A DNA stretch of 63,711 nucleotides, counting the filler, from Sluysia triapertura (lineage: Eukaryota): NCBI GenBank assembly GCA_046118255.1. It is 5 parts of 5 records of this genome, joined end to end, with 100 filler letters (N's around TTAATTAATTAA, not from the genome) between each part and the next. Parts side by side here need not be neighbours in the genome. Positions count along the whole stretch, not along the records: positions 1 to 13,251 come from JBJNIA010050117.1; positions 13,352 to 26,636 come from JBJNIA010048452.1; positions 26,737 to 37,492 come from JBJNIA010193869.1; positions 37,593 to 50,050 come from JBJNIA010107094.1; positions 50,151 to 63,711 come from JBJNIA010032490.1. The stretch is one strand, 5' to 3'. Positions 8,901-58,503 of this stretch are shown in pieces. Below the pieces are notes generated by a model. It made no database searches, was not told the DNA's origin, and saw only the letters and a list, made by a program, of their open reading frames with translations. The position numbers and the translations under genes are program-made. Positions within the stretch are counted from its first letter, which is position 1; each line of letters opens with the position of its first letter.

Positions 8901-11626
8901 TGCTGGGATTACCTAACTGTAGATCAGGAGGTGAGTAAGAAACATATAGAACTATAAAACAAGGAAATTGATGGATTGAACATTATAAACATTGCTGAAA
9001 TAAGAATCATGAAAAAGAAAACATTTATAATGATCTAACAGCTACAGAATATCTTAAGGTTCCAAAGACCTATATAAGGGTTTGGACTTTATGGAAGCTT
9101 GAGATGGATTAGAAGCATTAGAACTTTAGAACCTTTAGACCATTTAAGACCTTAGTAATCTTTAAGTATTTTGGAACATCAGTGAGCATTTAAGATCCTT
9201 TAGTAATCTTAAAGTATTTAAAATCTTTGAAATATTTGAGAAATAAAATCATTGTTATTGGTATTAAGAATAAATCTAGTATAGTAATAATTAAAACGGA
9301 GAGTAGAAAAAAGAAGCAGAGAGGTGAAGGAGATAACATCTATAGCCTCCTGAATGCCTTATAAACTACTGAATAACTTTAGAGTCTTAATAAAACCTTT
9401 AAACAGAGAATAAGATTAAGAATTAAAAACATATTAATTAATTAAAATCTTAATTAACTTAATTAAGAAAAAAATACGTTTTTGTGAATAACTTTTGAAT
9501 GCGGAATGCAATGTTGAATTTGAAACTGTGTATGTATTTGTTTTGAAAAGACTTTTCGATGAAGTTATGGTTTGATCGAGTTCATGCGAAGAAGGCATTA
9601 ATATTGAGCAAAGTCAAATTATAATTAATTTTAATTATGGAATGTTTAATTTTTTATACTTAGAGTGATATAAATGTAATGAATGGAATATGAGATGATT
9701 GCTATGAAAGAGGAGAATCTATAAGTGAGTTTGTTTGAGAATAAGAACCTTAAAACATTTTCATTAGAAAATTTGGAGTGAAAAACCAGAATCAATTAAA
9801 TTCTGAAAACTAAAATTAAATTACTTAATTTTTATGTATGCTAACAATAATAATGATTATTATTTTAATGTGAGAATTAATTTAAGTAAAAGTAGATTGA
9901 GTAGAGGAAAGGAAAATAATAGATAATAATCGTAAATAAAATTTTTGTGTTCCGTATCTAATACAGTTTGACAATTTGTACTATGTAAGTGTCAAAGTTA
10001 TTATTGCCGGATTAATTCTCAATGAATGTTGCAGTGATATATGAGAAAAAGTTTAATCATAAAATTTGAAATTGTTGGATGAGAAAATATAAAAAGGAAA
10101 ACTTAAAAATTTTATTACACAACATAACTGCAACTACAACGGCAATACAACAATAATAACAATTAGTAATGCAAATGAGAAGATCCATGCTTTAAGTAAT
10201 TTTTGAATTTATTTTATAATTAAAAGTAATATTATTTTTTGAGGATTTTATTAAAATAGTTTTTGTTCTTGTGTTTTACTGAAAAATTTATATTTGATAA
10301 TCTTGAATAATATTTGTGTCACCTCTGGTTTCTTGTGATAGATTTTTATATCCTTGAAACTATTATAAACGTTATTGTTAATCTCACCATTTTAATCATT
10401 TTTAGTACTGCTTAATAGAGATTTATAATAATACTAATTTGTAATTGATTTTTTAATCAGTAAATTGTTGTGTTGTTGTTATTGATTTGATTTCAAAGAG
10501 CTTAATTTTGGGGTGAATAGTAATTGATATTAAATAAGAGAATGATTGAAAATTTATATTTAATCTAGTGAATACTTAAATAATTGAGATTCTTTTTAAC
10601 CTAATTAAATTAATATTTATTTTAAATAATGACAGAATGACAAATAGCAACAGAATGACAAGTAAAAATAACTTCAATAGGATAATTCGTGGGTTAAAAG
10701 CTTTATGTAAGCGATTTTGGATGAACGATGAAATAAGATAATCATGAATTACAAGGTTGTTAACAGAAACCATTTAAAACATTAAATGATGTTAGAATAA
10801 GGCCATCTTGAAATTTTTAATAGAACAGACATTGATTAAATTATTATTATAAAAATATATAATTTGTACACATTTATTTAATATTTAGTGAACTAAATCA
10901 AAGATGGAAACATGAATGAATGAATCAACAATGAAAATTTGTTTTAACTCCATTAATTATTTATTTATCTGAAAGTAAATCTAAAAATGCTATGTTACAC
11001 AAATTCTTTTCTAATACCACAATTAATTCATCGAATTGATTTCTGTCATAGGATGTATTTTTCCTTCGTAATAATTAATTCAATTCCAAAGTGAATAATT
11101 CTTATTTAGTGCCACATATTTGATAGTGGTTTAGAATAACTTTAGTGATTGTTATAAGACAAATTAATTCTTCTTAATCTGAAAATTACTGTCGTAAAGC
11201 GAAATAATTACTTTCCAGCAAATTGATAGACTATTTAACATTTATAAGGAGACTTTTTTAGAAAAATTGAAGCACAAACACACAACGAGTGTACGTAAAA
11301 TAATGAAAAATGATAAGGATAAAACAATAAAAGCGATGTTGCAAGTATAATGATTAATTGTTGCCGTTATCAACGATTGTTATGTGCCTAATATCTGGAA
11401 TGAGGGAATTTTGCGTCTAGGTGAAGAAAGGTTGAAAAAGTGAAGTGATTATTGTTTTGTAGAAAATATGTAATGTAAGAATTTATGTTATAATATATAG
11501 ATATTAACGTGTTGTGATGGACTAATTGTTTAGCTAATATGTAAATTTTGTTTAAATGGTTAATTTTTGTTTTATGTGAATGGACAACGTAATATTAGAC
11601 TTTGAATTATTAGATGTACCACTAGA
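8901..11626. repeat. Modular repeat family member E1
   Basis: 8901-9245 resembles 26930-27300; 9340-9545 resembles 28505-28700; 10630-10750 resembles 54826-54925; 11285-11626 resembles 56095-56414. Confidence 0.75.
10576..10773 (-). CDS. Small hydrophobic peptide of the modular repeat (paralogue of 54674-55051)
   Basis: SFIQNRLHKAFNPRIILLKLFLLVI versus SFIQTRLHKSSNQRIILFKLLLLVI, with many synonymous codon differences. Confidence 0.45.
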   Translation of the reverse strand: MVSVNNLVIHDYLISSFIQNRLHKAFNPRIILLKLFLLVILLLFVILSLFKININLIRLKRISII

Positions 11627-12376
11627 AATAATAACATACAGCAATCTTAATGATGGGTAATATCGATAATATAATTACTGTTTATTATTATTAATTAATA
11701 ATGATTCATTCATTCGGTCGACAATGTTGAATCATAAAGATCAAAGAAATTGTAAAATTGTTTGGCTGACCATATTTGATTTTGAGAAGCATTCTGAATA
11801 TTTAAATAAAATAAAAAAGAAAATCATATCACAATTATTGGCCGGTGGCAATGGACTTTATCAATAATTCATTTGGTGAATTAAATGTACTTTTAATTTT
11901 CCGAGAAAGACTGCTATAGGGAGCTCTTTTAATATTGCAACTTGATTCAATACTTATTGCACTGGGAGTCAATTCACTAAATCACTGTATCCATGACATT
12001 ATTAGTATCCTCGAGATTTTATGTAAAATGTATCAATTTCATTTGTTCAAAACATGACAACACAACACTGTGTGTGTGTTTGATCATTATCTTTCCATTA
12101 TGTTTCACATGCTATTGCATAAAATGAATAATCAACAAAAGAAATATGCAAATGCTTCACATTAAAACTTAATCTTACAAAATAAACTGAAGGTTAAGTC
12201 CACCTAATAAGCACTATTTATATCAAAGTAGAAGACGTGTTATTAGGATTTACAGCAAGTAGCAAAAAACAAGAAAAAATTATTTTATGTAAAACGTTAT
12301 TTTTAATGTAGATTGAAATAGTCGTATTACGACCTAGTATATAAAATCAATTTAAACTAGTCTAGTAACTGTTTAA

Positions 12377-55530: not shown

Positions 55531-55584
55531 ATTATTATTATTATTATTATTATTATTATTATTATTATTATTATTATTATTATT
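55531..55584. repeat. (ATT)18 microsatellite
   Basis: Perfect trinucleotide run. Confidence 0.95.
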
Positions 55585-58503
55585 TCAAACTTCAAACATT
55601 GTAATAACAAATAATTTATCAAAGATTGATTATAACTTGTTAAACTGGTATCAAAAATAACAAATACAAAAACAGCATGTATTTTTAATATTCAGAAGAT
55701 AATTATGAAAAGGTTCACTTATTCCACTTGTATTTATGAATAATTCATTAGAATCGTTTTGATGAATTGAATTTGAATTTGTTTAACTTCACGTAAATTA
55801 TTCAGACTAAAAACATCGTAATTTTCTTGTTTAAATCGTCTTGGATCTTATACGTGACGCCTAAAGCATCTTATGCCGCGGTTTGTTTCTGTAAAGTATG
55901 CGATGGAGATGCATCACAATCTGTGCTTTGACATAGTTTTTTTATGTCATCTTGTAAGTGGTCTAGATAATGTTCCAAACCAAGTTTGTTAATCGACTGT
56001 TAAATGCATTGACTAATTTCTTCAGTTTGTTTACTTTTCGCCTTCTTCTATGTTCAGAACGAGGTTGGGTTATATTTGTTTTTTCACTTACTGTGGGTAC
56101 ACAAAATGAAAAAAATTAAATGATAAGAATAAAACGATAAAAACAATATTATTATCACTGTGACTAATTATTGCCATTATCTGCGATTGTTATTCGCCTA
56201 ATGTTTGGAATGAGGGAATTGAGAGATGTTATTGTTTTGCATGAAGTGTGTTATTTATAAATTTGTATAGAACTTAATGTATTGTGTTAAGTGCGTTTAA
56301 CATCTTTTGGTTGATTGTTTACTAAATATGTAATTATTATTTAAGTGTTCAATTTTTGTGTTATCATAATGAATAATGATATAAAATTTTTGAATTATTA
56401 GGTATACCGCCACAACTTGGTTCAGCATACGTTTGTACTACTTAGTAATTATAATCAGATATTCATTGATTAGCTATAAATTTAGTAATTCATAAATAAC
56501 TATAATTTAGCATTTCATATTCGTTTATTTTAGTAAAAAATCTCATTCATTAACATTATAATAAATGTTTATATTGTAATTTATCATCATTCAGTTTTAT
56601 TTAGCAAAAATCTCATTCATTAATAACCATTCTACATTCATTTATATTCGTGTTCTGCTTTTATGTGCTTTTCTTAAACTTACAAAATTAGTATGAAGGA
56701 TTCGCCTAAATTATACGATTTAGACTAGAATTCTCACTGACTCACCTGTAGGAATTTTTAAATATTAAATGAATAGCTCTTATTCTATAATTACTACGAA
56801 ATTACTTAATCAGTCTACTTAATTTGTTATGTCAACTATTCTGATAACTATTCTGATATGTTAATCACTAATTTGAGTCTCTAGTAGTGTTAATAATCTT
56901 AATATTATGGTTTATCACTACTTAATATTATCATTACAAAATTCTCCTGAAAATTAAATTTTTCCTTATCTTTCTTCAAGAAGAAGTCTTAGAATGCTAC
57001 CGCAATTGCTAATTATTATTAACATTATTCACATACAACCCCCCAATTCACATATTCACATGTAAAAAGAAATAAGGATTTAATTTAATTTATTTGGAAA
57101 CATAATTTGTATTCTGCCTTTTCACTGTTACCTTGAAAAACTATATTCATATTTTACAAAATTATACAATAAAGTTTGCCTTATTTTAACATAATCTAGT
57201 GGCATTATTAATGTTTAAGCTATTATAGAGTAATTTGAATATTTTTAAAAAAAATAATTATTTTAACTTACCATCAAACGCATTCATTTAATATATTTCC
57301 CAATATTTATTTTCAAATATTCGTTTCAAATTTCCAAACAATTATTTTAATAATTTCATTGACAATTCATTATTTTTTAAACATTTTCATTTTTTAAGCA
57401 TTCGTTACTTATAAGCATATATATTATTCAATTATAATATTTGTTTCGCCATTTTAGAGTTAACATGTACTGCAGAGGCATTATGTTAATCATTATCTTA
57501 AAGTAAAAATTATTATTTTTACATATTTTTTAATCATTATGTACTTATGTATAAATTAATTATTAATAAACTTTTATTATTTTATTAATTTTATTTCGGA
57601 AAATAATCTTAGATTAAAATTGAACATTATGTTACAATTTAAACTAACATTTTTATTATTATTATCATTAATAGTATTATAATTTTTATTATTATCATTA
57701 TAATTATTATTTATGTTATTATTATTATTAATTATATCGAACCATATTAAAATACAATCTATTTTTAGATTAAATCAATTTAAGCGACAAAATGTATTTA
57801 ATTATTTAATTATTGTTTATAATTTTGATGTTAGCTTCGACCAATAACTATTTTATTATTTAAACATAATAAAGACATGATTAATGTATTAAGATAACTA
57901 TAAAGTGTATATATTATGCACACATTATCAAGTATAAATTATTTTATATGGTTTTATTAAGAATTGTGATGTTTGTTTATTCTGTAATTGTACTTTCAAA
58001 GTTTAATTATGTAAGATTTATCATCATTTATGTCTAAATTAGGACATTTTCATTTTTTAATTATTCATGAACCAGTACTTTGTTCTATATCAAAAAGTAT
58101 TTAATGTTGAAATTTTGAATAATATTCTATAAGTATATTAAAATTTTAATTTGTATTTAAAGAAAATTATATTTCATACTTTAAGATATATTTTACAATT
58201 GGAGAAAACTATTTTATTCACAACAAAAAACAATAAACTTGTTGGAAGAAAGTTAAATTGTTTTTCACTTTAAAGGATACATTTTGTATTTGAAGAAGAC
58301 TATATTTTATTTTGGAAAAATCAATTTGATATTTTATTAGTTGATCGTTAGTTTTTTGACTATTATAAGTTGATTTTTAATTGTTTGTCTAAAATACATT
58401 TAATTTCTTAAATTATAATTTAGTAACGTTTACGTACATTATATAAACTTTGCGTAATAAATTAAGATAATTATAAAATTAATATTATTAAATATTATTG
58501 TAT

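Follow-up and report, generated by a model that had tools for sequence, protein, structure and literature searches.

Solo long terminal repeats (LTRs) are usually seen as gene-less promoter scars of the elements that left them. In the accessible parts of PMC3601003, LTR ends follow a general att consensus, TGTTRNR...YNYAACA, or TGTGGYG in the CsRN1 clade, conservation is higher in R and U5 than in U3, and the mean LTR lengths of animal gypsy elements are 174-695 bp (six training models, Table 1 of that source). Among giant relatives, the planarian element Burro is more than 30 kb long, of which up to 25 kb is internal, and has env between gag and pol (accessible parts of PMC6431247), and GAG-ENV-POL errantiviruses with a gB-type env occur in nematodes, bryozoans, and flatworms (PMC13524379, in part). 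LTR-mediated mRNA capture is also documented in animals (PMC5131818, in part). Accessory genes in giant gypsies, solo LTRs, and gene capture by way of LTRs are all already known. We analysed a 63,711-nt stretch of DNA from Sluysia triapertura (GCA_046118255.1; five joined parts, hereafter the window), in which an earlier note had proposed a family of 3-5 kb modular elements with ordered shared blocks and swappable gene cargo. The proposal was confirmed in part: the shared blocks were recovered, apart from two claimed copies of S, and one member, C, is dispersed and mobile, with a genuine terminus on its right. We put it at about an even chance that these members are decayed long LTRs, mostly solo, of a giant Ty3/gypsy family or families.

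The window is 25.6% GC and dense in repeats. Distances that span its four 100-base gaps (at 13252, 26637, 37493, and 50051, each 44 N + TTAATTAATTAA + 44 N, an all-frame stop linker) are unreal because the linker is filler between joined parts. The members are named A to F (Table 1; D by its end at 56414). We evaluated their shared blocks using a composition-aware Smith-Waterman alignment with an AT-bias-corrected matrix on 20 chosen pairs, with 200 local shuffles each, alongside whole-window similarity scans, in which nhmmer was less sensitive than our custom scan. For every confirmed pair of blocks P, Q, R, S, T, and V, 0/200 shuffles reached the observed score, and identity between copies was roughly 68-82%. 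Between A and C, block P scored 318 (278/384 positions identical, 72%) and Q scored 298 (9326-9544/28484-28700; 175/215 identical, 81%). The other pairs scored 119 (A-B), 85 (C-B), and 125 (A-F) for P and 155 (A-F), 72 (A-B), 69 (C-B), and 50 (F-B) for Q. The two copies of R, S (11279-11627/56085-56415), and T scored 136, 250, and 77, respectively, and an additional block, V (score 99), joins A and F.

These blocks follow the order T-P-Q-V-R-S on a single strand, with P beside Q in 4/4 copies and R beside S in 2/2. P was found in A, B, C, and partly F; Q in A, B, C, and F; R and S in A and D; and T before C and in D. For P, Q, R, and T, the claim of genuine blocks in a fixed order on one strand therefore holds against the shuffles. 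For S, the copies at 11279 and 56085 are homologous, but the proposed further copies at 30840 and, inverted, at 18773 stayed at the null level (scores of 43, 45, 36, and 39 against A and D, with null means of 39-40). The failure of these copies implies at least two unrelated right halves; C and E have in common only a borderline match of ~100 bp (score 64, reached by 1/200 shuffles). The full block set is present in no member. D lacks P and Q, T is absent ahead of P in A and B, and E showed no homology to P, Q, R, or S in pairwise alignments and whole-window scans, with P and Q not found at its far end. No right end was seen for B between its Q and the gap at 26637, and candidate ends on both sides are seen in A (2.73 kb) and C (4.70 kb) alone. 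The block mismatches show no consistent codon phase and many indels break the frame, so we read the blocks as non-coding and dropped the idea of decayed coding sequence. A 26-nt pattern from Q gave 0 matches in metagenome contigs and 0 in viral contigs.

Evidence for dispersal comes from contigs of one public run on positions 26737-37492, which may be the stretch's own source. Their summed depth is no copy number and may be inflated up to ~31-fold, by our estimate, by short overlapping contigs. C is repeated over its whole length, with a summed depth of 300-154,000 per bin throughout, 11,125 in the end bin, and 191 in the next. A single-copy contig without differences begins at 31606 and continues past the right end of C; given 30-base contig overlaps, this would place the last shared base at ~31635, one past ...CCACTACA. 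Q reaches a peak summed depth of ~564,000 vs 13-22 for single-copy contigs, which suggests roughly 1,000-30,000 copies once inflation is allowed for. Its depth is ~40x that of the P bins and also far above that of the cargo of C, whose bins have depths of 659-1549. The listed variant sites of this cargo are covered by 7-19 contigs, so the cargo moves along with the element, in some tens of copies at most. At 28700, ten contigs part from C and run on into letters resembling the post-Q sequence of A, so the cargo of C replaces the family's usual sequence after Q. This divergence is our best evidence for modular exchange, and it comes from the one run. A dispersed, abundant element family with a genuine right terminus is thus supported for C, the member that these contigs cover. 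One further contig joins position 34795, in a gypsy fragment, to Q at 28538 (depth 30), a possible gypsy-Q link.

A common terminus, CCRCYASA / TGTRGYGG-like, had been assigned to A, C, D, and E. Over 18 nt the four right ends are mutually similar in 6/6 pairs (at most 1.2% of controls), the ends having been picked post hoc, but the 8-mer alone is not specific, since it was seen 9 times vs 2.45 expected, with 5/9 occurrences at unrelated places. G skew is 0.46-0.68 over the 200 bp before each right end, a level reached by 41/1248 skew windows. On the left, the A-C alignment starts at TGCTGGG (A) and TGTTAGG (C). A left-like motif of 12-14 nt, defined post hoc, has its third copy at 36885 (3 seen vs 0.25 expected), and a single-copy contig stops within 2 bases of that copy. 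The ends of C, TGTTAGG...CACTACA, agree with 13/14 positions of the att consensus; those of A are degenerate (TGCTGGG...CACTAGA), and those of D and E read TGTGGYG, as in the CsRN1 clade. The same termini fit TGTNR (TGTTA at the left and TGTAG at the right of C, TGTGG in D and E). End-to-end inverted similarity is short and imperfect (over 18 nt, 5.2% of controls for C and 16% for A), and scans found no longer inverted repeat between member ends. There is no flank duplication around A.

The coding pieces of C, D, and E all read inward from the CCRCYACA end. In C and E, a CCAATCAG pair lies ~130-210 bp upstream of the first ORF (open reading frame) and ~0.8-1.1 kb inside that end. The four cargo ORFs of C gave no Pfam match. 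Beyond Pfam, relatives were sought for two of the four; no homolog was found for the 164-aa ORF, and the single match of the 171-aa ORF, repetitive and at 24% identity, was dropped, as were relaxase matches in Atlas with low recognition and few shared features. The C cargo also includes one in-frame 54-nt GTAAG..TTTAG intron-like stretch at 29351. The decayed AMPK alpha fragment spans ~120 codons, of which a 51-aa piece matches AMPK alpha (E 2e-16) and indicates that the stretch is of animal origin. Its place is between T and R, which makes it cargo only if D ends at T. The coding pieces of E gave RRM_1 on 28% of members (0.87) and other weak matches (E 0.27 and E 0.019), with no match in an RRM homology search. 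No protein-level similarity was seen between the cargos of different members. Of the gene cargo described in the earlier note, the AMPK fragment is thus recognisable though decayed, but RRM and CCCH are weak leads only; the reported lack of a transposase agrees with the member frames scanned. Swappability fared unevenly: the cargo of C is amplified and replaces the usual post-Q sequence, but containment between two ends is unproven for the AMPK and RRM-CCCH pieces, E and D lack P-Q, and the right halves are of two unrelated kinds rather than one block. Exchangeable cargo rests on one well-supported member, C.

Among the identities suggested in the earlier note, a giant solo LTR fits best because of the att-like TG...CA ends, the sharp boundary, the high copy number, and the absence of a terminal inverted repeat (TIR) or a Helitron end. 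A Ginger-like element fails on TIR length and a Helitron on its 3' end, and nothing was found in support of endogenous virus segments. We infer the LTR identity, the parent element, the route of gene capture, and the promoter activity from these features. Under the solo-LTR reading, a host integrase-bearing gypsy would have inserted the element at its TG...CA ends, duplicating 4 bp, and recombination between LTRs would later have left a single LTR of 2.7-4.7 kb. P-Q would be the conserved half common to subfamilies, and the other half would vary, being S-type in A and D and of another type in C and perhaps E. A CCAAT-box promoter that faces inward would lie in this variable half, together with a gene that is either accessory or captured. 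During reverse transcription, template switching would shuffle the halves and bring in parts of mRNAs, the AMPK fragment being one example. The template for U3 is the 3' end of the genomic RNA; relatives keep accessory ORFs at that end, where template switching could add mRNA pieces. Read from the TGTRGYGG end, the unit would begin with a variable U3 with promoter and gene, followed by the conserved Q-P part. We slightly favour this orientation, in which the cargo would be sense and part of U3, and the conserved P-Q and variable right halves agree with the greater conservation of R and U5 than U3. The opposite orientation is possible: a P-like motif opens the repeat that precedes the neighbouring plus-strand gypsy, and introns would be kept in cargo that is antisense. 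The fuller proposal, of giant LTRs or LTR-derived non-autonomous units in which one half would be an exchangeable cassette of a CCAAT promoter and a gene (the AMPK fragment, RRM-CCCH, or orphan ORFs), swapped between subfamilies around a P-Q core in thousands of copies, is a tentative one that we would not yet call probable.

The neighbouring gypsy is a candidate parent type, and its link to the blocks is circumstantial. This decayed element has a Monjiviricetes-type fusion glycoprotein (PF24664, 38477-40589) followed by RVP, RT_RNaseH, and rve, its reverse transcriptase being recognised by similarity to relatives. A second aspartyl protease and more ORFs come after the integrase; the element also has membrane-type ORFs and others of unknown kind, and an eroded polypurine tract (PPT)-like sequence lies at 48824. 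No gag domain was found in the upstream frame scanned (37999-38391), and the element is bounded by the gaps at 37493 and 50051. Its close relatives are 4 of 12 metagenome loci (L001-L004; 52-56% identity in integrase), with pol polyproteins of up to at least 2368 aa that include a second protease and ankyrin repeats. Long accessory ORFs follow pol in these loci, and Pfam recognises ankyrin repeats in 2/4 and an exonuclease in 3/4. The family has one or two exonuclease ORFs of RNase_T/DEDD type, and its ORFs have tandem repeats between them. None of nine blocks compared with the four loci stood clearly above reversed-query controls. In L003, elements stand in tandem with a common 1.8-kb LTR (TGTGAAG...CTTAACA); there is also a TGG like that of a primer-binding site (PBS), and an accessory ORF extends right up to the PPT. 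The base skew of this LTR did not settle the orientation of the window units.

Two repeats nearby also touch on gypsy elements. Repeat U (36885-37492 on the plus strand and 13557-13788 on the minus strand) consists of G-skewed units of ~220 bp that start with TGTTCGG. It reaches a summed depth of up to 406,000 per bin, starts where the single-copy contig ends, and may be the 5' LTR, with tandem repeats in it, of the env-gypsy on the other side of the gap. A second, more decayed gypsy RT/RNase H fragment lies at 33900-34930 (+).

Several observations weigh against solo LTRs. No two members form an LTR pair within the stretch (C with D around the env-gypsy and B with C were rejected because the sequences are not alike), and no PPT was seen at any member end. 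Within the window, no member sequence was found as direct repeats on either side of gag-pol accompanied by a PBS and a PPT, but both flanks of the gypsy are cut by gaps. A TGG follows the end only in D, 3 nt past it (56415-56432) at PBS spacing, and is missing after A, C, and E. The flanks of C match at 3/4 positions (ATAT/ATTT), with a chance probability of 0.09. D would be flanked by an exact ACTT/ACTT if T were its left end (0.006 for one place), and this end would begin with TA, unlike the P-type left end; ACTT is found 26 times in 50151-54829, and the T of C begins right at a contig edge. The intron-like stretches of C, if real introns, would not survive in a sense-strand LTR. The LTR of L003, the only complete one among the relatives, is 1.8 kb with tandem repeats inside, and has neither any window block nor the terminal G skew. 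Just past the last ORF of the gypsy, 48486-48556 matches the P of C over 70 bp (score 61, 0/500 shuffles), and the gypsy-adjacent DNA has no other block match and the P copies of A and B do not share this one. As a sign of a poly(A) site inside the unit, AATAAA is uninformative either way at 26% GC.

Many of these points would suit a DNA transposon of the pack type, which we consider possible though unlikely. It would be non-autonomous, with TGT...ACA ends that are short and imperfect, and would depend for its movement on an integrase-like transposase (Ginger2/IS481EU-like) acting in trans. Gap repair would then capture genomic or cDNA pieces, so introns and promoters would be kept, as the intron-like stretches in C suggest, and the members would stand alone with no PPT, PBS, or LTR pair. 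In the accessible parts of PMC2836005, Ginger2 has TGTNR ends, 4-bp target-site duplications (TSDs), and AT-rich RTATAY targets, which fit the ATAT at C, and multicopy Pack-TIRs are known in animals (PMC8277862, in part). The TIRs of Ginger elements are, however, 40-270 bp (PMC2836005, accessible parts), whereas the ends of C and A pair imperfectly over 18 nt with no longer inverted repeat in the scans, and the 40 frames scanned held no such transposase. It is also conceivable, but less readily believed, that P-Q, R-S, and T are separate repeats, with the cargo being neighbouring decayed pseudogenes or nested insertions and the modular family being in part an artefact of dense repeats and four gaps. 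The incomplete block sets (no P-Q in D, no block in E, and no T before P in A and B), the greater depth of Q than of P and cargo, and the 8-mers at five unrelated places would be expected from such a patchwork. The constant pairing of P with Q and of R with S in the same order and strand is not, nor is the connection in A of P-Q to V and R-S, the repetition of C over its whole length up to a sharp end, or the similarity of the four ends over 18 nt.

Helitrons carry a GC-rich hairpin before a 3' CTRR and insert between A and T. Rolling-circle units of this kind that captured gene fragments would explain varied fragments between blocks, no transposase, no firm TSD, and the ...CTAG end of A. They are very improbable here, given that 3/4 ends read ...CACA/TACA and not CTRR, that A and not T follows all four, and that folding of the final 44 nt yields 0 to -4.4 kcal/mol and no GC hairpin common to the ends. 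Equally improbable are old local segmental duplications without common termini. The single orientation of 5/6 members within 48 kb would suit them, but such a split has a chance probability of 0.22 by our arithmetic, the member flanks do not align, and both Q and the right part of C occur at thousands-fold depth in the independent run.

Read as solo LTRs, the window units resemble those of animal Metaviridae in their TG...CA att-type ends, conserved and variable halves, high copy number, and near 4-bp flank match. They differ in length (2.7-4.7 kb vs the 174-695 bp of the models in PMC3601003, accessible parts) and in carrying ORFs, and they have only a candidate parent type, no PPT at their ends, and, outside D, no PBS-like TGG. 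The window gypsy shares with Burro and the gB-env errantiviruses a mononegavirus-type fusion protein before protease, reverse transcriptase, RNase H, and integrase, as well as extra ORFs, but its gag is not recognised. Burro's size leaves several kb for LTRs, but in the accessible parts of PMC6431247 its accessory domains are described in the internal region and not in LTRs, and the window blocks are untied to the window's gypsy. The uninterrupted AMPK fragment beside LTR-like sequence recalls LTR-mediated retrocopies, which, in the part of PMC5131818 available, are flanked by pieces of LTR elements, whereas AMPK would sit inside one terminal unit, its containment being putative. Ginger1/Ginger2 (PMC2836005) and Pack-TIRs (PMC8277862), as far as these sources are accessible, are similar in their TGTNR-like ends, sizes of 2.6-7 kb, 4-bp TSDs, and passenger domains. 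Unlike Ginger1/Ginger2, the window units have no TIRs of 40-270 bp, and no integrase-like transposase without reverse transcriptase was present in the member frames scanned. A literature search, with subscription journals and Repbase mostly outside its coverage, found no multi-kb terminal units with differing promoter-plus-gene halves. ORFs are present in some retroviral U3 regions, as in sag of mouse mammary tumour virus and lentiviral nef. These are likewise genes within a terminal repeat, but are single fixed viral genes and not exchangeable host-derived cargo.

If multi-kb LTRs do carry variable genes and promoters, LTR turnover would scatter gene copies by thousands, and each solo-LTR event would seed a promoter-plus-gene unit in the host. 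This would be a route to orphan genes and to kinase or RNA-binding pseudogenes in invertebrates, as well as a source of false gene models, and would extend Burro-type gathering of accessory genes beyond the internal region, to the terminal repeat itself. A pack-type element lacking real TIRs would likewise be unusual, whereas a patchwork would be ordinary repeat decay.

Table 1. Features of the window, with positions counted along the whole stretch.
Feature	Position	Strand	Description
Member A	8901..11626	+	P-Q-V-R-S; TGCTGGG...CCACTAGA; Tc1-like element adjoins left side
Block P, copy A	8900..9294	+	Alignment
Block Q, copy A	9305..9544	+	Most conserved block
Block V, copy A	10314..10471	+	Alignment
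Block R, copy A	10653..10746	+	Alignment
Block S and right terminus, copy A	11279..11627	+	Alignment, end comparison
Member F, fragment	15120..16178	+	End of P, Q 15120-15346, tRNA-SINE insertion, V 16038-16178
Member E, doubtful	18773..20926	-	Terminus 18773, G skew, CCAATCAG at 19535 and 19586
RRM-like (19867-20100) and CCCH-like (20677-20880) pieces, decayed	19746..20926	+	Weak assignments
Member B, fragment	22846..23250	+	Diverged P and part of Q
Block T, copy 1	26737..26813	+	At contig edge, 117 bp left of P
Member C	26931..31634	+	TGTTAGG...CCACTACA; flanks ATAT/ATTT; repeated whole length
Block P, copy C	26930..27344	+	Alignment
Block Q, copy C	28484..28700	+	Alignment, contig depth
Cargo of C	28740..30376	-	Broken orphan ORFs of 164, 171, 79, and 133 aa; multi-copy
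CCAATCAG box pair, inverted	30505..30558		~130-180 bp upstream of first cargo ORF of C
Decayed giant Ty3/gypsy	38477..48455	+	Fusion glycoprotein, then PR-RT-RH-INT, second protease, extra ORFs
Block T, copy 2	52400..52481	+	ACTT directly before
AMPK alpha kinase-domain fragment, decayed	53530..53891	-	One frame, 7 stops, no intron-sized break
Block R, copy D	54829..54922	+	Alignment
Block S and right terminus CCGCCACA, copy D	56085..56414	+	Alignment, end comparison

Other repeats surround these features. A weak repeat, W, has four copies of ~100 bp (12147, 14527, 50161 inverted, and 56678), two of them 260-520 bp past an S end. We rejected W as internal sequence next to S because the right flanks of A and D do not align, and treat it as a separate repeat. 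A family of tRNA-derived short interspersed nuclear elements (SINEs) has ~5 copies (4700, 4930, 15380, 16210 inverted, and 58500), of which only two tRNA-like heads pass the Rfam cut-off. At two places (8113-8898 and 21594-22357), a Tc1-like element that has short TIRs and is internally deleted lies just left of a P block, at 0 and ~490 bp, respectively, and further decayed Tc1/mariner-like transposase fragments, judged by eye, are at 700-1600 (-) and 7500-7900 (+).

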